From: an uncultured archaeon
Lineage (GTDB): Archaea > Asgardarchaeota > Thorarchaeia > Thorarchaeales > Thorarchaeaceae
Assembly: GCA_964458565.1 (NCBI GenBank)
Contig: CAYWJO010000002.1
Span: 1 to 64,000 of the forward strand
Direction: 5' to 3'
Length of the DNA stretch: 64,000 nt
Shown here: piece after piece, positions 30,292 through 50,835 of the stretch
Position numbering within the stretch: position 1 is the stretch's first letter
Layout of the letters: each line of letters begins with the position of its first letter
Translations under genes and position numbers: made by a program
Notes under the pieces: generated by a model
What the model was told of the DNA's origin: nothing
Database searches by the model: none
Seen by the model: the letters and a program-made list of their open reading frames with translations, nothing else

Positions 30292-31752
30292 GTGAGAATT
30301 ATGGGGGTGATAACTTCGAATGAATCTCGCCTTAAAGCGATATGGTCTGAGTATCGTGTATTTATACTCCTTCTCATCATAGGTGCTGTTATTTGGATTC
30401 TAGTATTCAATGCAGCAGCTCTAAATCTTATTTCTGGCCCTCGTATACAACCACACAGAGCTGTTTGGGTTGGAAGGATAAGCTTCGATTTCTTTGGTTA
30501 TGATATTCAATTTCAGTTAGAAGGGTATATTGACTATGATTTCTATTATAATTCGTGGGGTGAACAATTTCTATCGGGTTATCTTCCTTACACCCCCGAA
30601 TTTGATCATATCATTATAGATGGGACTCCATATAACACTCCATACTTCTTTCCTCCCCTCTATGTCTACATGTGTGCACTTGGTCGGGCACTACCAATTC
30701 AACCATTTGGGATAGGTGCACTCATCTGCATATTTGGGTATCTCACTGCATTTCCAATCTACGGTATTGGTAAATATCTATCCAACAATCAAAGGGTTGG
30801 TGAGGCTGCGGCTGCTGTTTATCTCCTCAATCCCCTCGTCCTATATCATACGGTATTCGAGTGGTTCAATCCCGCTCCGTTTGTGTTCTTCACATTACTC
30901 TCCTTTTACTTTCTAATGCAGAACCGAAGATATGCTGGAGTCATTTCCATTGCAATTGCTTTCATGTTTAAACAGACTGCTCTCTTTCTTGCACTACCTG
31001 TGATTGCTGTTCTAGTCAAGCGACCTCCCAGAAAGCATGAAAATAATATTGACAATGATACAACTAACGCAGATAATGATGACGATAGCGTGGATATTGT
31101 AGGATTCGTTAAGCTCGCAATAGTGGCTCTAGTCACAGTTGGTCTAATTTCAATTCCATACATTTTTGACCCTATGAATTATCTACACTATATCTTCGTA
31201 AAGCCTGGTACCATAAGCCTTACTGATTTCAGTAACACCCCTCGATTGGGCACTCCTATGGTAATGGCTGTGTTATTTATCGTAGCAGGGTCTCCAACAT
31301 GGTTGATTGAGTCTATCAATTTCCTTCAATCCACATCTATTGCTCTAATTATTGGAATTTTGCCCCTTTTTGGATTGATGTTGCTGGAACGTAAATCGGA
31401 TAAGAATCTAGTATCATATTGGAGACGAATATTCTATTTTGCTTTTCTCTTAGTTTTATGGTTGCATATCTGGAGTCCACGCGGCATCTACAAATACTAT
31501 CTTGTGTTACTCATTCCCTTCCTTTCGATTCTAGCTTCCTCCCAAATTTGTAGCCGGGGCGAGGAGAAAATAAAGCTCTCATTCAGGATGTTGATTCTAC
31601 CAACTATACTGACATTGATGGTTCTTCTTCCGCTTCGAATATACTATCTCTTCTTCTTATCTTTGATATTTGTTGGATATCTATTCCAACATTATTTTGG
31701 TGCGACCTGTTCTCTTATCGGCGACAAAATCAGAACAATTAGGTCTGGCTAA
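30292..31752 (+). CDS. GT-C-fold membrane glycosyltransferase, tandem paralog
   Basis: EGYIDYDFYY...YFFPPLY; LLNP; FKQ; PRGIYKYY matches PRGVFKYY of the upstream gene. Confidence 0.7.
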   Translation: MRIMGVITSNESRLKAIWSEYRVFILLLIIGAVIWILVFNAAALNLISGPRIQPHRAVWVGRISFDFFGYDIQFQLEGYIDYDFYYNSWGEQFLSGYLPYTPEFDHIIIDGTPYNTPYFFPPLYVYMCALGRALPIQPFGIGALICIFGYLTAFPIYGIGKYLSNNQRVGEAAAAVYLLNPLVLYHTVFEWFNPAPFVFFTLLSFYFLMQNRRYAGVISIAIAFMFKQTALFLALPVIAVLVKRPPRKHENNIDNDTTNADNDDDSVDIVGFVKLAIVALVTVGLISIPYIFDPMNYLHYIFVKPGTISLTDFSNTPRLGTPMVMAVLFIVAGSPTWLIESINFLQSTSIALIIGILPLFGLMLLERKSDKNLVSYWRRIFYFAFLLVLWLHIWSPRGIYKYYLVLLIPFLSILASSQICSRGEEKIKLSFRMLILPTILTLMVLLPLRIYYLFFLSLIFVGYLFQHYFGATCSLIGDKIRTIRSG

Positions 31753-32921
31753 AAAAGTTCCTTCAGTTCTTCTTTCTTTGTTTCTAATTTGCTTTGCAGA
31801 CTTTTAATTCTAGATTCAAGCTTCTTGCTTTGTTCATCGTAGGCTTCCTTTGGCATAGCACCTGAAGAATGTCTTTGCCCAATATGATCCCTCAATTGTT
31901 CTACGGATTTGATCTCTTTCTCTAAGGCCTTGATGTCTGCTTCAAGGTCAGCCTCTATGTTCTCTTCTTCAGTCCAGAACTGCTTAGCAGGAATCATTAC
32001 TCCTAATTGGTCTTGAGTTTTTTCAGCGAAGTCCTGAAACTGATTCCGCAAACTCTCTATGTTCTTATCTACGTTCGATAACTTCTCATTTACCTTTGAG
32101 ATATCCTTCTGAAGGTCGAATACTGCATTTGTTAGCCGTCTTAGTGTAGTTTCCATTTCCTGAGATGAAACCCCCTCAAATCCGGTATCCTCTCTTCCAC
32201 CCTCATTTGGCTTTTGTAGGGATGTTTTTCCAGCACTTCTCGTATCTCCCGAAAGCCATCTGAAGGCATTGACAACAAACTTCTGATTTTCTTTGCTTGC
32301 CAATCCCCCTCCCTTCCTAAATATCTCATAACTCCCAATACACATTACTCTGCCTTTTCCAAACTCGGAAATTGCGATAATTGGCTGAGATGCTGGTTCT
32401 GATGTGGTTGATGTTGAAGCAATCACCTTAGCTTTCTGTGTTACCTTGAGAGTACACCCCGATGGATATAGCAGTTCTTTCAGACCTGTTGTGACAGCAT
32501 GCTTTTCCAGAGATCTGATTAGCACCATTGTTGGAATCCCTGAGTTACTCCTATCGTCCTTTACAGCAGTATTTTCGAACGTGACTCCAAAAATCTCTGT
32601 CAATTTACTCATATTATTCATCAATCCCCGGTCTCCACTGGAGAGAGAAAGAAACATGAGACCTCCCCCTTGCTTGACATACTTTGTGAGAGCTTCAATC
32701 TCAGGGCCACGAAGTTTGGAGCTATTTGGGCAGCCAAATACTACCACAGACGCCTCCGCGATCTTCTTGTCAAGAATCATGAATTCAGTATATGGTTCAA
32801 CATCATAGTCATTGTCACGGAGAAGTGTTCCTAACTCAGAGTAGGTAGAATCAAGTCTTCCACGTTCGTTTTGGGTCTGATCGAAATAGATTCTCTTTCT
32901 CCGTTCACTCAATTGAAACAC
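31749..32921 (-). CDS. IFT52-like GIFT (GldG/DUF4350) domain protein with C-terminal coiled coil
   Basis: IYFDQTQNE, EIEALTKYVKQGGGLM, LTEIFGVTFEN, YPSGCTL, GKGRVMCIGS and NQKFVVNAFRWL motifs; heptad C-terminus. Confidence 0.8.
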   Translation of the reverse strand: MFQLSERRKRIYFDQTQNERGRLDSTYSELGTLLRDNDYDVEPYTEFMILDKKIAEASVVVFGCPNSSKLRGPEIEALTKYVKQGGGLMFLSLSSGDRGLMNNMSKLTEIFGVTFENTAVKDDRSNSGIPTMVLIRSLEKHAVTTGLKELLYPSGCTLKVTQKAKVIASTSTTSEPASQPIIAISEFGKGRVMCIGSYEIFRKGGGLASKENQKFVVNAFRWLSGDTRSAGKTSLQKPNEGGREDTGFEGVSSQEMETTLRRLTNAVFDLQKDISKVNEKLSNVDKNIESLRNQFQDFAEKTQDQLGVMIPAKQFWTEEENIEADLEADIKALEKEIKSVEQLRDHIGQRHSSGAMPKEAYDEQSKKLESRIKSLQSKLETKKEELKELF

Positions 32922-45759: not shown

Positions 45760-46578
45760 TTGGTCTTAAAGGATAAACTTGGTGAGTATGATTACCTCTT
45801 TAGAGTAATACCATATGGTGAGAACCAGATGCCTGATAGAGCTCAATCAGAACTATATGCTTCAATAGCGACCCTCGATCAACTCAAGAAACTTTATGAT
45901 GTTGGCGCAGTTGATCCCCGGTCTTACCAGCGTGAAACTGAGGGATTACTTACTGAGGTTAGATTCCATCTTGATGAACTAAGACGAGTTGGGCTTGATG
46001 TTGGAAGATTTATTGAAACTGAACGGCTCTCAGACCAGTTTCCAGACGCTCTTCATATTCTTCAGTTGAGAGATACAAATCCATCAACCTCAGTTCAGGG
46101 TATGACAAAAGAGGAATATTATGATTATATCGGACTTTCCGTTCTCGATGTTGTCACTGCTAATTCCTCTAAAGGATTAATGGGATTGGCTGAGTTGATT
46201 GTTGAGGTAGTGCGAAAACTACCTGAATTGAAGTCAGTAAGTTACAATGATGTTATTGAAGCGGTAAATATGGTCGCTCAACATGGTTTAATCCCTGGTA
46301 TTAGGACTCTCAAAGGTGGAGTAAAGGTTGTTGAGCTTCGGCCTTTGGAATTACGCCGAGATCAGGCTGATGTAATCAATATTGCTGCCTCTAAGGGATT
46401 TGTTACTGTAGAAGAAATAATGCTTGAGTTCAAATGGTCTGAGGATCATGCGCGTCAAGTATTGACTAGTCTAGTCGATGCTGGAATGGCCGTTGCTGAT
46501 ATGAGGTTTTCCACAGGTGGCAGATACTGGTTCCCCGGTTTGCGTTCGAGAGACTCAAGTAGTCAAACGCATCCATAA
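45760..46578 (+). CDS. ESCRT fusion: Vps28 N-terminal core-like domain plus Vps22/Vps36 (EAP30) tandem winged helices
   Basis: N: SELYASIATLDQLKKLYDVGAVDPRSYQRETEGLL...FPDAL; C: GLMGLAEL, RPLELRRDQ, GFVTVEEIMLEFKWSEDHARQVLTSLVDAG...RYWFPGL. Confidence 0.82.
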   Translation: MVLKDKLGEYDYLFRVIPYGENQMPDRAQSELYASIATLDQLKKLYDVGAVDPRSYQRETEGLLTEVRFHLDELRRVGLDVGRFIETERLSDQFPDALHILQLRDTNPSTSVQGMTKEEYYDYIGLSVLDVVTANSSKGLMGLAELIVEVVRKLPELKSVSYNDVIEAVNMVAQHGLIPGIRTLKGGVKVVELRPLELRRDQADVINIAASKGFVTVEEIMLEFKWSEDHARQVLTSLVDAGMAVADMRFSTGGRYWFPGLRSRDSSSQTHP

Positions 46579-46579
46579 T

Positions 46580-47296
46580 CTAAAGTACCAGACGAACTGC
46601 TCCCTTCTGCTTGTCAATCCACTCTGCTAATTCTCTTTCTACAAGAAGCTTGATCACATAATGAATTTCTTTCTCAGGAAGTTTAGCAAAATTTTGTTTA
46701 TTTTCTTGAATCACAATAGACTTCACATCTAATCGAGTTCTACCATTTTCTAAAGCCCATTGATAGATTATATCTGCCCATTCTTCCAAGAAACGCCAAT
46801 ATACTCTCAATTGACGCTTTTTCCCCTCCATCCAAATTCCTACTTCTTTCTCAACAATCTTGTCGCCAATTTTTCTATAAGCATCGGCCTTGTTCTGGAT
46901 GTCTTTGAATGGATATTCTGACACAAACTTTGAGAAGCTAAGGATATGAATTGAGTATTCTTCACACCATTCGAGAACGAAATCGGACCACTCGGATGCC
47001 CACATCTGTAAATCCTCCTCTCTTACAGGAATGTGGTACATCCACTCAGTCTGTGATATGTCTCCCCAGCTTGGTAGTAACCGAGGCTCTTCTACAATCA
47101 TTTCTATTTCTGATTTAGTTTCAACAATACTACCTTTCTCTATCTCAGCTTCTGTTTCGATGATAGGCATTTCTTCGTGAATCATTGATTCCGTTTCAAT
47201 TTGAGTTTCAGTCTCTTGTTCTTCAACTATACCTTCTTTGGCATCGCTCTTATCAACTGACTTTTGTTTTCGCCTGATTCGCTCTCTCTCTCCCAC
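46580..47296 (-). CDS. vps25: ESCRT-II Vps25 homolog with acidic N-terminal extension
   Basis: WASEWSDFVLEWC; VYWRFLEEWADIIYQWALENG; LVERELAEW. Confidence 0.88.
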   Translation of the reverse strand: MGERERIRRKQKSVDKSDAKEGIVEEQETETQIETESMIHEEMPIIETEAEIEKGSIVETKSEIEMIVEEPRLLPSWGDISQTEWMYHIPVREEDLQMWASEWSDFVLEWCEEYSIHILSFSKFVSEYPFKDIQNKADAYRKIGDKIVEKEVGIWMEGKKRQLRVYWRFLEEWADIIYQWALENGRTRLDVKSIVIQENKQNFAKLPEKEIHYVIKLLVERELAEWIDKQKGAVRLVL

Positions 47297-47299
47297 AGG

Positions 47300-48532
47300 C
47301 TAGGAACCCTCCGCCCAATCACTATACTTCTTCACGTCTTCCGGTGACGTTGCTGGTCTAATGTTATCAATGGCGTCTAGAAAATCCTTTCGTGAAACGG
47401 TTCTAAGATCCAGAATCTCGGTGTCATCATCCATTCTTCCGGTGCTTTCAAGTTCTCTAATTGGTTCCATAGCTGCTTCCCGACATACTATACTTAGATC
47501 TCGACCGCTGTATCCTTCTGTTAGCATAGCCATCTCATTAAAATCAACATCAGGCGCGATATCAACACCCTCAATATGTATCTCAAAAATCCGTCTTCTA
47601 GCAATCTTGTCAGGAAGTGGAACATGAATGCGTTTCTCAAAGCGGGAACGTAGAGCAAAATCAATCTCCCATGGTAAATTCGTCGCACCAATGAGAGTGA
47701 TTCTTTCATCTGCTTCACTAGCTAACCCTTGAAGCTCCGTCAACAGTTGTGTCTTTAATCTACGTTCTCCACCAACATCGTCTCCAGACCTCGCTACCCC
47801 AATTGAGTCCAGTTCATCAATAAATATAATCGCAGGCTGCATGCTTCGCGCTCGTTCAAATAGCATCTTGACAAGTTTCTCCGATTCTCCCAACCACTTA
47901 CTTACAATATTTGCTGCTGAAACATTGAAGAATGTTGCACTCACTTCTGCAGCAACCGCACGAGCTATCAACGTTTTCCCGCATCCTGCAGGTCCATAAA
48001 GTAGGATTCCTTTCCATGGTTGTCTTGCTTTACCTCTGAACAACTCAGGGTGTTTCATTGGGGCTACGATTGCCTCTGTGATTGCTTGTTTTGCCTTCTC
48101 AAGTCCTGCTACATCTGCCATACTTCCATGTGGTGTTTCAGTAATGATGGTGTCTGCAATCATATCTCCAAGTCTTTTTCCATCCTCATCATCAGTAGAG
48201 GGGACCGGTCTATCTGACTCAGAGGTTCTTGTATCTTCAACAATTGTTGTTGGGAGTGTGCTTATCCCATCTATTGGCCCTCTTGATTTCTTTTTAATTC
48301 CTGACAGATATCTGACTCTATCAACACATTCCTGAGCTCTATCCAAGTAGTGTTTCCGAACAGAACGTAATGTTGCTGCGTTAGAGAGCTTAATCAATAT
48401 CTTACTCGCTTGCAAGTATTGTCTTGCAGCTTCCTTTTTCATTCCCCTTCTGTCTAGATCGATGGCTTTCTCAAGGAGTTTCCTGAGTCCTTCATCGAGT
48501 CTATTACTACCTGAATCTGACATTTTCTTCAC
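47300..48532 (-). CDS. vps4: Vps4 AAA+ ATPase with MIT domain
   Basis: KAIDLD...YLDRAQE MIT domain; DVAGLEKAK; PWKGILLYGPAGCGKT; SKWLGESEKLV; IFIDELD; RFEKRIHVPLP. Confidence 0.95.
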   Translation of the reverse strand: MKKMSDSGSNRLDEGLRKLLEKAIDLDRRGMKKEAARQYLQASKILIKLSNAATLRSVRKHYLDRAQECVDRVRYLSGIKKKSRGPIDGISTLPTTIVEDTRTSESDRPVPSTDDEDGKRLGDMIADTIITETPHGSMADVAGLEKAKQAITEAIVAPMKHPELFRGKARQPWKGILLYGPAGCGKTLIARAVAAEVSATFFNVSAANIVSKWLGESEKLVKMLFERARSMQPAIIFIDELDSIGVARSGDDVGGERRLKTQLLTELQGLASEADERITLIGATNLPWEIDFALRSRFEKRIHVPLPDKIARRRIFEIHIEGVDIAPDVDFNEMAMLTEGYSGRDLSIVCREAAMEPIRELESTGRMDDDTEILDLRTVSRKDFLDAIDNIRPATSPEDVKKYSDWAEGS

Positions 48533-48662: not shown

Positions 48663-49271
48663 TTGGGTACATTCAAAAAAGCATGGTCTTGGGGTCGTAA
48701 AAAACCCGACATATCTGAGGTTTCTAGTCAATTACGTATTCTAATAAAACAGTTAGAACGTCAGAGAAATAAATTGGAAAAAGAGGAACGTGACACGAAA
48801 GCTCGTGCTATTCGTGCGCGACAAGCAGGTCAGAATGAAGCATATGTGACCTATGCAACTGAAATGGTTCGATTTCGTCGCTATGTTCTTTCAATCGATA
48901 AATCCCGCTTACAGATGTTGAAGATTTTGGCTCATCTAACCCGGGCACAGACAACTGCTAAAGCAGCGAAAGCTATGGAAGATGTTGCTAAAATCCTTGG
49001 AATGCTTGGGGACTCCATGGATGCCTCAAAGGTCATAGAGAATGCTGATGAAATTGCTCGTCAAGTTCAAGAGTTCGAAATCGAATCTGGTATTGCTGAT
49101 GATGCATTCGATTCTGCTATGCCTGAGATTTCTAGTGAAGACATCGCTGAGGCTATGGCTGAAATCGACGCTGAAGTTGGTGGTAAAGCAACTGTTGGAA
49201 AACGTCCGGCGACTGAAGCGGAAGCATTAGAGGATGACATTAAAGCATTGGAACGAGAGCTAGGTGTGTAA
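48663..49271 (+). CDS. ESCRT-III subunit, Vps2/24/46 (CHMP1-3-like) class
   Basis: N-terminal amphipathic MGTFKKAWSWG; basic helical hairpin KQLERQRNKLEKEE...AGQNEAYVTYATEMVR; acidic C-half; MIM1-like tail LEDDIKALEREL. Confidence 0.9.
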   Translation: MGTFKKAWSWGRKKPDISEVSSQLRILIKQLERQRNKLEKEERDTKARAIRARQAGQNEAYVTYATEMVRFRRYVLSIDKSRLQMLKILAHLTRAQTTAKAAKAMEDVAKILGMLGDSMDASKVIENADEIARQVQEFEIESGIADDAFDSAMPEISSEDIAEAMAEIDAEVGGKATVGKRPATEAEALEDDIKALERELGV

Positions 49272-49275
49272 CGCT

Positions 49276-50835
49276 CTATAGATCATATCTTCTTTCTGCA
49301 GAGTGTCTCTCAATTTCTCGACGTGCATAATATGAATCTCGCATCAGGCTACGATATCTTCTGATAAAATCTTCAGGAACGATTCTTCCAGCTCTCAACA
49401 TATGAATAGTTTCCCGAATTGCGTCATCAAGCGCTCTTGCATCTCTTCTCATATTATCAAGATTTGGTCTTGTTTGACGCTCGTAATATTGTGGCGGTGT
49501 TCTCTGGCCTATTAGTTGTTCCAAATGGTCGCTGAACCGTTGCTGACTACCATAGTTTTGTGAATATCCAACTTGACGGTCTCTTGACCATTGATCAGTC
49601 TGCGGTTGCGGATAATATCTCGAAGTATCTTGTGCATAACGAGGTCCTGTCATTTTGGAATTCAGTATTGAATATACAATTCCCTCAATTCTTAGTCGAA
49701 TATCGCTGATGTTGGTGTCGGTCTGTTCTAACTTTCTCACACGCTGCATGTCAGTCTGAACATATCGTTCAAATCTACGTGCGATTTCAATGTAGTCTGG
49801 AAGAACTCTTTTCGTTTGATCACTGCAGATAATTTTAAGATCTCCCTGTTTCAACTTCAAAACCAATCGTTTTCGAAGTCGACCATCTTCTTGTATATCT
49901 TTCAGATACAGAAGTGGAAAATCAAAAACGATGTCAGTTTTTTTCCTTACCAACCCCGTTTCAGCAACGAAAATCATTCTTTTATTTGTGATAAAGAGAC
50001 TTCCTGTAGCTTTGTCATTCTTGATAAAATCGCTTCCTGCAAGAGTTATTGGTGAGAACGCGCTCACAGGTAGTTCATTGACTGAAAGTTCAGAGTATTC
50101 GTAAAAGGGTGAGAATTTATCTCTATAATACTTCAACCCATCTAGTTGTTTCTTTACGTCATCCATAGTCAATCGTGCTTGAACCAACGTTTCTTCCACA
50201 AGAGCTCGGTAGCTTATTCCAAGTTCAGTAATTCGATTAACAACTCCTTCAATAAAGGGAAATTGAGATGGACTCCAAGAAGACTGATCAATCAATCCTT
50301 TAGTTTCTGCAACCATCTGTTTAGCTACAATCTCGGCGTGATTTCCAATTCGCTTCTTTATCGCTGGGAATTCAGCATGTATTTCTTCAATTCTCTCTTC
50401 CAACCACTTGTAATGAAGGAAATTAGCCATCCTTAGAGATACCAATAATCTCTTTCCAGCGACCATTCGATTTGTGAATTCCTTAAGTTTCGTGTGTCCA
50501 TATTGCAGGCTCATTATCGCACTACGCATATCATGAGCTAACTCTCTTTGCTTCTCTGATATGTGTACGATTCTACTTGAATGACAGTGAGGGCAAACCT
50601 CCATTGTCCTCTTACCAATCCCAAGGTTCTCAGAGTCGCACTCGGGACATTTCAAGGGATTTTCACCTGGCAATGGGACTCCAAGATTGTGCTGGCAATC
50701 TTTGCACATTCGGTATTCTCTAACTCTCTGTTCCAAACATGCTGAGCAAATTGTAGTTCCGCAGTCCTCACACATATGAGTTGCAGACTGATTCTCACAT
50801 TCCTTGCATGTTAGGTTTGAGGAATCTGCGGTCAT
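49276..50835 (-). CDS. B-box/zinc-finger, helical, PH(GRAM/GLUE-like) and Vps23 steadiness-box protein (ESCRT-I-related)
   Basis: CKEC...CEDC...ICSAC plus three more CxxC; GSLFITNKRMIF; C-terminal LDDAIRETIHMLRAGRIVPEDFIRRYRSLMRDSY. Confidence 0.78.
   Translation of the reverse strand: MTADSSNLTCKECENQSATHMCEDCGTTICSACLEQRVREYRMCKDCQHNLGVPLPGENPLKCPECDSENLGIGKRTMEVCPHCHSSRIVHISEKQRELAHDMRSAIMSLQYGHTKLKEFTNRMVAGKRLLVSLRMANFLHYKWLEERIEEIHAEFPAIKKRIGNHAEIVAKQMVAETKGLIDQSSWSPSQFPFIEGVVNRITELGISYRALVEETLVQARLTMDDVKKQLDGLKYYRDKFSPFYEYSELSVNELPVSAFSPITLAGSDFIKNDKATGSLFITNKRMIFVAETGLVRKKTDIVFDFPLLYLKDIQEDGRLRKRLVLKLKQGDLKIICSDQTKRVLPDYIEIARRFERYVQTDMQRVRKLEQTDTNISDIRLRIEGIVYSILNSKMTGPRYAQDTSRYYPQPQTDQWSRDRQVGYSQNYGSQQRFSDHLEQLIGQRTPPQYYERQTRPNLDNMRRDARALDDAIRETIHMLRAGRIVPEDFIRRYRSLMRDSYYARREIERHSAERRYDL

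Follow-up and report, generated by a model that had tools for sequence, protein, structure and literature searches.

The locus raises the question of what a steadiness box (SB) of the TSG101/Vps23 type does in a protein that carries a zinc module, a helical region and a PH domain where a UEV domain would be expected. The window, the whole 64,000-nucleotide stretch of DNA that was analyzed, comes from a thorarchaeial genome that is 93% complete. A single open reading frame of 519 amino acids fills positions 49276 to 50835 on the minus strand, a strand that the original prediction had left unstated. This gene and the ESCRT genes next to it are as follows.

45760-46578, plus strand: Vps28N-Vps22 fusion (Pfam EAP30 and a weak VPS28 N-terminal match)
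46580-47296, minus strand: Vps25 (Pfam ESCRT-II)
47300-48532, minus strand: Vps4 (Pfam AAA/Vps4_C/MIT)
48663..49271, plus strand: Snf7/ESCRT-III gene (Pfam Snf7, E 4.9e-14)
49276..50835, minus strand: whole SB gene, 519 amino acids, assigned to Znr_CC_PH_SB as its thorarchaeial member (open reading frame with translation, homologues)

A homologue search returned 163 proteins, nearly all from Thorarchaeota, with 50 to 78% identity over the full length, and the wider family amounted to 120 representatives after clustering at 50%. The family profile matched Loki-like proteins of 620 to 750 residues at E about 1e-170, and a tighter family alignment also retrieved loci in a Promethearchaeota MAG and in Ca. 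Sigynarchaeum springense. One homologue, P0051, shares 57% identity with the query across 96% of its length and contains three motifs that are diagnostic for the ThorAB25_08990 "SB" protein as published. Through these motifs and the Loki-like profile matches, full-length homology to a published family was found, and the 519-residue protein is, as judged by sequence, a member of Asgard Znr_CC_PH_SB, asCOG cog.011556. The gene occurred in exactly one copy in 31/31 thorarchaeial genomes, and its features were conserved in a family that spans hundreds of Asgard genomes; the features described below lie far beyond chance. A count of 374 of 400 genomes with matches at E<=1e-5 had suggested that the family is near-universal in Asgard archaea. 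This was rejected as an over-count, because the matches in five groups (f13, f22, f3, f17 and f20) span the SB part only, in open reading frames of 260 to 306 amino acids; about 317 of the 400 genomes had strong matches. At least one SB-only match fell in the same open reading frame as a canonical UEV-Vps23 match.

Six segments were distinguished in the protein, all encoded on the minus strand.

50563..50835, minus strand: zinc module, residues 1-91, six CxxC pairs (invariant Cys, AF2 model)
50095..50562, minus strand: helical region, residues 92-247, three helices of ~45 residues (AF2 model)
49777..50070, minus strand: PH domain of GRAM/GLUE type, residues 256-353, strongly basic (VIA-align, Foldseek, Pfam)
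49651..49776, minus strand: conserved post-PH helices, residues 354-395 (AF2 model, thorarchaeial alignment)
49471..49650, minus strand: disordered linker rich in Q, Y, P and R, residues 396-455 (low pLDDT, gapped alignment)
49279..49470, minus strand: SB, a hairpin of Vps23-core type, residues 456-519 (model, Pfam, HHalign)

Conservation was followed in 25 thorarchaeial orthologues and in 42 divergent relatives at 18 to 32% identity. All six of the N-terminal CxxC pairs noted beforehand were found (C10/13, C22/25, C30/33, C44/47, C63/66 and C81/84), and the twelve Cys were invariant in both sets and in 23 genome-derived N-termini; the six pairs were present in 22/22 genome-derived homologues. 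Three Cys4 zinc sites are therefore predicted. The long helical region was also borne out, as three high-pLDDT helices (residues 92-135, 142-178 and 189-240, pLDDT about 85-95 in the AF2 monomer model) between the zinc module and the PH domain. They model as one intramolecular bundle rather than as a classical coiled coil. At the turn between helices 1 and 2, R135 and H141 were conserved in 100% and 95% of the divergent members, respectively, and the motif LVSLRMANFLHY.W was invariant within the thorarchaeial orthologues. Homology to the DH-PH unit of RhoGEF proteins was rejected: it topped the Foldseek list at E ~1e-5, yet with rmsd values of 5 to 26 Å, and the two share no more than the succession of a helical bundle and a PH domain.

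The anticipated GRAM/GLUE-like PH core, with GSLFITNKRMIFV at residues 278-290 and FPLLYLKDIQ at 306-315, was confirmed by its fold. Residues 256-353 were modeled as a beta-sandwich with a C-terminal helix, for which VIA-align gave Z 12.6 to the GRAM-PH domain of MTMR2 (1lw3_A, rmsd 3.0, 108 aligned), Z 12.5 to Lam6 (5yqr_A) and Z 10.0 to the GLUE domain of EAP45 (2dx5_A, rmsd 3.6, 97 aligned). Foldseek matched the domain to Vps36 GLUE (2cay_B) at E 4e-4 and also to 5yqr. The Pfam matches of the query were all under gathering scores; among the 42 relatives, bPH_3 was matched in 22, GRAM in 7 and Vps36_ESCRT-II in 4. The domain had a net charge of +6.9 +/- 3.7 (42 members), with conserved K/R positions at 286, 297, 298, 322 and 323. 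Two helices follow it in the AF2 model (363-371 and 377-391), where Q360, D362, R367, Q371 and R380 were invariant in the thorarchaeial set and E384 was conserved in >90%. The low-complexity linker was present as described and is disordered, with pLDDT <50 over residues 395-430 and 443-454; it varies in length and sequence, appears as gapped, unconserved columns in the thorarchaeial alignment and is far longer in the Loki-like 620-750-aa forms.

A match of the C-terminal ~50 residues to the SB had been set beforehand as a test, and such a match was obtained. The C terminus, which carries LDDAI...LRAGRIVPEDFIRRYRSLMRDSY, was modeled as a hairpin of two helices (459-481 and 487-512, pLDDT >90). 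Pfam Vps23_core matched the query weakly (residues 467-508, E 0.0055) and matched 13/42 divergent relatives, the best at 7e-6, while full-length homologues from another Asgard family reached its gathering score, at 26.8 and 27.5 bits; for a homologue at that score, the alignment to the query ran on through the hairpin (24% identity, E 2e-38). Yeast Vps23 core (2p22_A) aligned to profile positions 457-515 at E 0.08. When the C termini of the 42 divergent relatives were compared by HHalign with the SBs of 21 canonical Asgard UEV-Vps23 proteins, a probability of 98.2% was obtained (E 3.9e-14, 64 columns), with a score of 80 against a maximum of 14 over 60 column shuffles; other helices of the same protein, used as a control, gave E 0.008-0.3. 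Thorarchaeial C termini taken alone gave E 2.7e-4 over 49 columns, at a modest probability of 41%. In the reverse direction, the family profile detected canonical UEV-Vps23 SBs in genomes without the family. On these profile comparisons, the hairpin qualifies as a genuine SB. A second Vps23_core match in the same genome, to a 528-aa open reading frame on contig C42 (E 0.12), was a generic coiled-coil protein and was set aside as noise.

Synteny with ESCRT genes in relatives had been set as the second test, and the original prediction withstood it: the synteny was conserved in 12/12 thorarchaeial genomes and in most other Asgard lineages. The SB gene and Snf7 lie tail-to-tail, with stop codons 4 nt apart in the window, and therefore cannot be cotranscribed. 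Snf7 adjoined the SB gene in all 12 thorarchaeial genomes (10 genera), tail-to-tail in 11 of them. The order of the Vps22-Vps25-Vps4-Snf7 block was identical in 11/12; in the twelfth genome, the block was kept, and Snf7 and the SB gene had moved about 3 kb and were inverted. Snf7 lay within 1.5 kb of the SB gene in 23/30 Loki-like loci and was directly adjacent in Asgard groups f12, f19 and f9/g39. Vps4, Vps25 and Vps22 were not found near the SB gene in the Loki-like (f9, f24) and f19 loci, and outside Thorarchaeia the gene is often beside one Snf7 paralogue only. One genome encodes a complete UEV-Vps23/Vps28/Vps22/Vps25/Vps4 cluster, and there the SB gene holds the same position after Snf7.

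That genome bears on the claim that the SB is carried here instead of a UEV. For the present genome the claim held: no Pfam match to UEV or UQ_con was found in the 519-aa protein or in the genome (93% complete), where ubiquitin and E2 were likewise not found. Elsewhere it failed, as the family coexists with canonical UEV-Vps23 and Vps28. The query belongs to a paralogous lineage of its own, found alongside UEV-Vps23 in other Asgard genomes, and so is not a Vps23 orthologue. With Vps23/TSG101 and Asgard UEV-Vps23 (PF09454) it shares the homologous SB, including the motif A-[IL]-[DE]-D ... G-x-I-x-P-x-D-[FY]-x-[RK]-x-Y-[RK], and probably a role in assembling the ESCRT-I headpiece; unlike Vps23, it has zinc, bundle and PH modules in place of a UEV and of a Vps23-type stalk leading directly into the SB. 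With Vps36/EAP45 it has in common a basic PH fold in an ESCRT protein with zinc fingers. The PH domain of the query is without NZF inserts, no Pfam match to EAP30 or a winged helix was found in the query, whose C-terminal part is modeled as linker and hairpin, and GLUE is equaled or outscored by GRAM-type (MTMR2, Lam6) and generic PH/PTB domains. The query resembles Vps36 by function and fold only.

The reading that we favor as probable is that the thorarchaeial Znr_CC_PH_SB protein is an ESCRT-I-like membrane adaptor. The proposal of an adaptor with Vps23-like and Vps36-like features agrees with the domains, the synteny and the published view of the family (Makarova et al. 2024), and its function would follow these steps. 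The basic PH domain of GRAM/GLUE type would sit on acidic membrane lipids, held by a rigid three-helix bundle whose far end carries the three-zinc module. The flexible linker would let the SB hairpin pack against another SB hairpin. In this genome, the neighboring Vps22 offers the obvious candidate partner: a Vps28-N-like hairpin is fused to its N terminus, and nothing else in the genome matched VPS28. Where UEV-Vps23 and Vps28 occur, their SBs may be the partners. The genome also encodes other SB-like proteins that could be the real SB partners, e.g., one of 255 aa (CdvA-like/BAR-SB) at positions 25991-26761 of contig C1. ESCRT-II (Vps22/Vps25) and then ESCRT-III (Snf7) with Vps4 would be brought to the membrane site. 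Since ubiquitin, E2 and UEV were not found in this genome, targeting would be ubiquitin independent.

The zinc module admits two other readings. The original prediction had noted that the B-box plus coiled-coil layout recalls TRIM proteins, and a TRIM-like or RING-like protein, whether an E3 ligase or a scaffold linked to ubiquitin, would suit the spacing C-x2-C-x8-C-x2-C-x4-C-x2-C, which fits the first six B-box ligands, as well as sub-threshold Pfam matches (about 15 members for zf-B_box, 5-8 for ANCHR-like_BBOX), weak PDB profile matches to the RNF4 RING and ZFYVE19, VIA-align scores of Z 4.2-4.4 to the KAP1 and COL2 B-boxes, and the appearance of "RING" among the abbreviations in the legend of Supplementary Figure 8 of Hatano et al. 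2022 (PMC9192718). The module was folded alone (pLDDT 83.6) and searched twice against the PDB, and no match discriminated between classes: all VIA-align scores were below Z 5, and zinc ribbon, B-box, RING and ZZ scored alike, the sub-threshold Pfam matches of the module were to DZR as well as zf-B_box, and the best Foldseek match (E 0.056) was to zinc ribbons, RING alignments having rmsd ~18 Å. The beta-hairpins modeled between Cys pairs 30/33-44/47 and 63/66-81/84 resemble sequential zinc ribbons, no RING family was found at threshold by Pfam in the query or the 42 relatives, and the intramolecular three-helix bundle of the monomer model is unlike the long dimeric coiled coil of TRIM proteins. 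Together with the apparent lack of ubiquitin, E2 and UEV in this genome, these results leave the B-box/TRIM reading unsupported, and we regard it as very improbable. Zinc ribbons are common among archaeal DNA- and RNA-binding proteins, and the ribbons at the top of the Foldseek list for the module were of MCM and TFIIE type, so that a nucleic-acid binder or regulator placed in the ESCRT block by chance can be envisaged. Such a protein would be expected neither to keep ESCRT synteny across the phylum nor to carry a zinc module with a mean charge of -0.6 rather than a net positive one, and its PH and SB domains would be left without a role; this reading is the most improbable of those considered.

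A different alternative, compatible with an ESCRT-I-like adaptor, is a functional analogue of crenarchaeal CdvA, a membrane-binding recruiter whose hairpin is reportedly homologous to the SB and which is encoded beside ESCRT-III. Here, the PH domain would anchor the membrane and the SB/CdvA-like hairpin, or another conserved surface, would recruit Snf7 directly, bypassing ESCRT-II, in a setting such as cell division or vesicle budding. The phylum-wide pairing with Snf7 points this way, as does the absence of Vps4, Vps25 and Vps22 from the Loki-like and f19 loci; the Snf7-only neighborhood outside Thorarchaeia could reflect a direct tie to ESCRT-III as readily as a part in ESCRT-I. Homology between the SB and the hairpin of CdvA has been reported (PMC10936438; bioRxiv 10.1101/2023.07.25.550441), and the Pfam CdvA coiled-coil model matched 3/42 relatives. 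However, the hairpin is nearer to Vps23_core, no Pfam match to PRC or CdvA was found in the query, in which a PH domain takes the place of the PRC barrel and no tail that binds ESCRT-III in the manner of CdvA is known, the whole ESCRT-II block stays beside the gene in Thorarchaeia, and convergent genes are weaker evidence of physical pairing than an operon. We consider the CdvA analogy unlikely, though well short of negligible.

The ESCRT-I-like adaptor allows a more tentative extension. The third hairpin of the eukaryotic ESCRT-I headpiece is supplied by Vps37, which is reportedly absent from Asgard archaea. The family might provide this "missing" hairpin and also act as the main subunit that targets Asgard ESCRT to membranes; in Thorarchaeia, the SB might pair directly with the Vps28-like hairpin of Vps22 in a ubiquitin-free ESCRT-I/II supercomplex coupled to one ESCRT-III paralogue, a coupling suggested by the tail-to-tail pairing with Snf7 across the phylum. 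A hard-wired supercomplex of this architecture was neither stated nor tested in the literature found on the family, and we put it forward as a doubtful but conceivable arrangement. The protein probably stands at the upstream, membrane-facing end of ESCRT in the closest archaeal relatives of eukaryotes and, as Thorarchaeia apparently are without ubiquitin or UEV, may be their only ESCRT-I-like targeting factor. The ligands of its PH and zinc modules would reveal how ESCRT found membranes before ubiquitin-dependent sorting.

This type of protein was already published in 2022 and 2024. Znr_CC_PH_SB, also written Znr_PH_CC_SB (cog.011556), was described as an Asgard-specific family located in ESCRT neighborhoods, and a part in ESCRT-I, with the PH domain on the membrane, was proposed for it (Makarova et al. 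2024, mBio 15:e00335-24, PMC10936438), and the same asCOG appears as "Steadiness/Vps23 box" in bioRxiv 10.1101/2023.07.25.550441. The published domain order of three zinc modules, helical/coiled-coil region, PH and SB is identical to that of the query, and nothing essential differs. The thorarchaeial form is short (519 aa, compared with ~650 aa for the Lokiarchaeum GC14_75 member at contig coordinates 11247..13199; PMC10936438) because its linker is shorter. Table S3 of Makarova et al. 2024 holds no row of per-domain evidence for the family, and the present SB, PH and synteny tests therefore add support, not novelty. No later experimental papers on Znr_CC_PH_SB were found in a literature search. 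With the family and its proposed role in print and a thorarchaeial orthologue cloned, the window offers a confirmed example with supporting statistics and no discovery.

That orthologue, ThorAB25_08990, was used as "SB" in a yeast two-hybrid screen and called a "freestanding steadiness box protein" (Hatano et al. 2022, Nat Commun 13:3398, PMC9192718). The legend of Supplementary Figure 8 of that paper lists RING, CC, PH and 23-SB domains, and its two-hybrid data hint at contacts of the Loki and Thor SB proteins with Vps28 and of the Loki SB protein with Vps22. ThorAB25_08990, given in Supplementary Data 1, is a direct orthologue of the query in a locus of the same order: 08990 SB, 09000 ESCRT-IIIA, 09010 Vps4, 09020 Vps25 and 09030 Vps22. 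In print, its sequence opens with an internal Met (MCEDCG...) and is missing the first CxxC pair, which was conserved in all 22 genome-derived homologues.

A single minus-strand ORF of 519 aa was found at window 49276-50835, and the elements described in the original prediction could all be placed in its translation: six N-terminal CxxC pairs within residues 10-84, the strings GSLFITNKRMIFV (278-290) and FPLLYLKDIQ (306-315), a Q/Y/P/R-rich linker at about 395-455, and a C-terminal motif closing the protein as LDDAI...LRAGRIVPEDFIRRYRSLMRDSY. The long helical region was modelled as three packed helices in an AF2 model of the query built on the Thorarchaeota (Thor) alignment (mean pLDDT 77.8).

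Parts of the query protein in the AF2 model (residues; gene at window 49276-50835, minus strand)
1-91, Zn module
92-247, one bundle of three ~45-residue helices, pLDDT about 85-95
256-353, beta-sandwich plus C-terminal helix
363-391, pair of short helices
between the short helices and the hairpin, disordered linker
459-481 and 487-512, C-terminal helical hairpin, pLDDT over 90

The Pfam matches of the query (DZR, E 1e-3; zf-B_box, 1.8e-3; Vps23_core, 5.5e-3; bPH_3, 0.012) were all below gathering scores, and family-level tests were therefore needed. A word-indexed search returned 163 full-length homologues at 50-78% identity, nearly all annotated "hypothetical" and the nearest carrying Thorarchaeota annotation, while exhaustive profile searching yielded 120 representatives after clustering at 50%, many of them 600-800 aa long. 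The gene was present in exactly one copy in 31/31 sampled Thor genomes (16 genera). The family profile matched 374/400 Asgard genomes at E<=1e-5, and by count from the profile search about 317 of the 400 contained a strong, probably full-length member. In the Asgard families f13, f22, f3, f17, and f20, the match was limited to the steadiness box (SB) part, in ORFs of 260-306 aa, at least one of which had itself been matched as a canonical UEV-Vps23. Across 25 Thor orthologues and 42 divergent relatives at 18-32% identity to the query, twelve Cys, R135, and G278 were invariant in both sets, and H141 and K322 were >=90% conserved.

The proposed C-terminal match to the TSG101/Vps23 steadiness box was upheld by five agreeing lines of evidence. 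Vps23_core was found at the C-terminus of 13/42 divergent relatives (best E 7e-6), and PF09454, run against 201 Asgard genomes, matched two kinds of ORF, proteins of ~260 aa and of ~470-720 aa. In G118, a genome of another Asgard family, a 498-aa ORF aligned end to end with the query, including the hairpin (24% identity, E 2e-38), and its SB attained the Pfam gathering score at 26.8 bits (orthologue, 27.5 bits). A canonical set was assembled from the SB regions of 21 Asgard Vps23-core proteins of ~244-298 aa, of which the G118 member, scanned for domains, contained UQ_con/UEV and Vps23_core. Against this set, the Thor C-termini aligned over 49 columns at E 2.7e-4, compared with E 0.008-0.3 over 1-12 columns for the query's other helices, and the C-termini of the 42 divergent members aligned over 64 columns with 98.2% probability, E 3.9e-14, and a score of 80.3, against 8.8 +/- 1.9 (maximum, 13.8) for shuffled columns. 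In the reverse direction, the family profile detected canonical Vps23 SBs in genomes without the family. Both groups have in common the motif A-[IL]-[DE]-D ... G-x-I-x-P-x-D-[FY]-x-[RK]-x-Y-[RK].

The GRAM/GLUE-like PH core was likewise recovered. When residues ~240-360 were compared with 48,161 PDB representatives by VIA-align, the closest structures were GRAM-type PH domains, namely, MTMR2 (1lw3_A; Z 12.6, rmsd 3.0, 108 aligned) and Lam6 (5yqr_A; Z 12.5), with the ubiquitin-bound EAP45 GLUE domain (2dx5_A) at Z 10.0; the yeast Vps36 GLUE domain (2cay_B, E 4e-4) was also among the Foldseek matches. DH-PH tandems scored well but at rmsd 5-26 A, and therefore have only the arrangement in common. 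Among the 42 divergent members, the PH domain was the only consistently basic part (net charge +6.9 +/- 3.7; other parts, about 0), with conserved K/R at positions 286, 297, 298, 322, and 323, which would fit acidic-lipid binding. At residues 135-141 (window ~50413-50433, minus strand), R135 was invariant and H141 95% conserved over 42 relatives at about 20% identity; both were modelled by AF2 in the turn between helices 1 and 2, on the bundle end bearing the PH domain, and a bundle-PH interface and a ligand site are possible reasons for this strict conservation.

The suggested TRIM/B-box resemblance was neither borne out nor contradicted by the isolated Zn module. Modelled alone from 23 sequences (pLDDT 83.6), it gave no discriminating structural match with Foldseek (best E 0.056, to MCM and other zinc ribbons) or VIA-align, where a ribosomal zinc ribbon, the KAP1/COL2 B-boxes, RING, and ZZ were tied with Z below 5 throughout. 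In the model, Cys pairs 3 and 4 are separated by a beta-hairpin, as are pairs 5 and 6. Sequential zinc ribbons have this arrangement, and zinc ribbons are what Makarova et al. 2024 (PMC10936438) described. The published ThorAB25_08990 and many database entries of ~500-505 aa begin at an internal Met (MCEDCG...), without the first CxxC pair. This pair (window 50776-50835, minus strand, residues 1-20) was conserved upstream and in frame in 22/22 genome-derived homologues, several with a TTG or GTG start codon. The published start and those of the ~500-505-aa entries look mis-called, and the Y2H construct would have carried an incomplete first zinc site.

The query locus is an Asgard-type ESCRT cluster, with neighbours encoding Asx-tRNA synthetase, an EAP30/Vps22-like protein whose sequence weakly matches the VPS28 N-terminal model, Vps25, Vps4, and Snf7. 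Synteny with ESCRT genes extended to relatives: the block AsxRS, Vps28N-Vps22, Vps25, Vps4, Snf7, and family gene was kept in 12/12 Thor genomes (10 genera), with the family gene always adjoining Snf7 and tail-to-tail in 11/12 (gaps, 7-40 nt). In G118, the order was UEV-Vps23, Vps28, Vps22, Vps25, Vps4, Snf7a, Snf7b; the family homologue came next, convergent and in the place it has in Thor. Among 30 loci of Loki-like families, 23 had a Snf7b-type gene <1.5 kb from the family gene, always tail-to-tail; Vps4, Vps25, and Vps22 were not near it in these loci. The cluster Snf7 belonged to type "a" (E 4e-23 and 28% identity to G118 Snf7a, versus E 0.06 to Snf7b), whereas "b" was the best-matching type for the family's neighbour in Loki-like genomes. 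The query's own genome has a further ESCRT-III gene, Snf7b-like, outside the cluster (C4:103876-104550, plus strand). The stop codons of Snf7 (plus strand) and the query gene (minus strand) are 4 nt apart (window 49272-49275). The transcripts of the two genes must terminate inside or overlap each other, which makes antisense interplay possible.

The family is already known. Makarova et al. 2024 (PMC10936438) described Znr_PH_CC_SB/Znr_CC_PH_SB (cog.011556) as three Zn ribbons, PH, coiled coil, and SB, not in eukaryotes, likely ancestral in Asgard, and likely an ESCRT-I component with a PH domain expected to be membrane-associated; a 2023 preprint (bioRxiv 10.1101/2023.07.25.550441) had placed it among the steadiness/Vps23-box asCOGs. 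In Hatano et al. 2022 (PMC9192718), Supplementary Data 1 lists ThorAB25_08990 as "SB," beside 09000 (ESCRT-IIIA), 09010 (Vps4), 09020 (Vps25), and 09030 (Vps22), and the legend of Supplementary Figure 8 names RING, CC, PH, and 23-SB domains. Three motifs of ThorAB25_08990 were present in P0051, a database homologue 57% identical to the query. Our literature search found no experimental work on the family after these papers.

Apart from the TRIM remark, the original interpretation is supported, and the query protein is most likely an ESCRT-I-like adaptor. The basic PH domain would bind membrane, and the helical bundle would be a spacer, with the Zn module on the end away from the PH domain. The flexible linker would allow the SB to dock onto a second hairpin of the SB type, which in the query's genome would be the Vps28-like one of Vps22 and in other genomes those of UEV-Vps23 and Vps28. 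Such docking may nucleate ESCRT-II, ESCRT-III, and Vps4. Y2H hints in the text of Hatano et al. 2022 (PMC9192718) have the Loki and Thor SB proteins contacting Vps28 and the Loki SB protein contacting Vps22. They also suggest that direct ESCRT-I/II contact with ESCRT-III is possible in Loki and Thor. The main rival explanation, a CdvA-like protein recruiting the neighbouring Snf7 directly, is compatible with the adaptor role.

The adaptor was also proposed to carry the SB instead of a UEV. No UEV, ubiquitin, or E2 family members were found in the query's own genome (93% complete), where the sole VPS28-like match was the N-terminus of the adjacent Vps22. However, G118 has both a family member and UEV-Vps23; since the family coexists there with canonical ESCRT-I, it is not simply a UEV replacement. 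Candidate alternative SB/headpiece partners in the own genome were a 255-aa protein (C1:25991-26761, minus strand; L091:3989-4756) and two small helical ORFs (C1:144539-144973 and C12:29767-30057), the latter matching the family SB profile at about 1e-4. In the 255-aa protein, also matched by that profile, residues 157-232 form a CdvA-like/SB hairpin (Pfam CdvA, E 1.4e-5), and the protein fits the "BAR-SB" layout given for Thor in Table S3 of Makarova et al. 2024 (PMC10936438). A 390-aa protein at window 31749-32921 (minus strand) gave a weak and probably spurious SB-profile match; it has an IFT52 GIFT domain (PF23355, E 3.6e-19) and, after it, a long coiled coil. Among Asgard archaea, multidomain SB proteins are patchy; one example is a 579-aa protein of G029, a genome of another family (L038:1983-3722, plus strand), in which a NosD/beta-helix domain is combined with a Vps23_core-like hairpin (E 4e-4) and, at the C-terminus, a prokaryotic RING finger.
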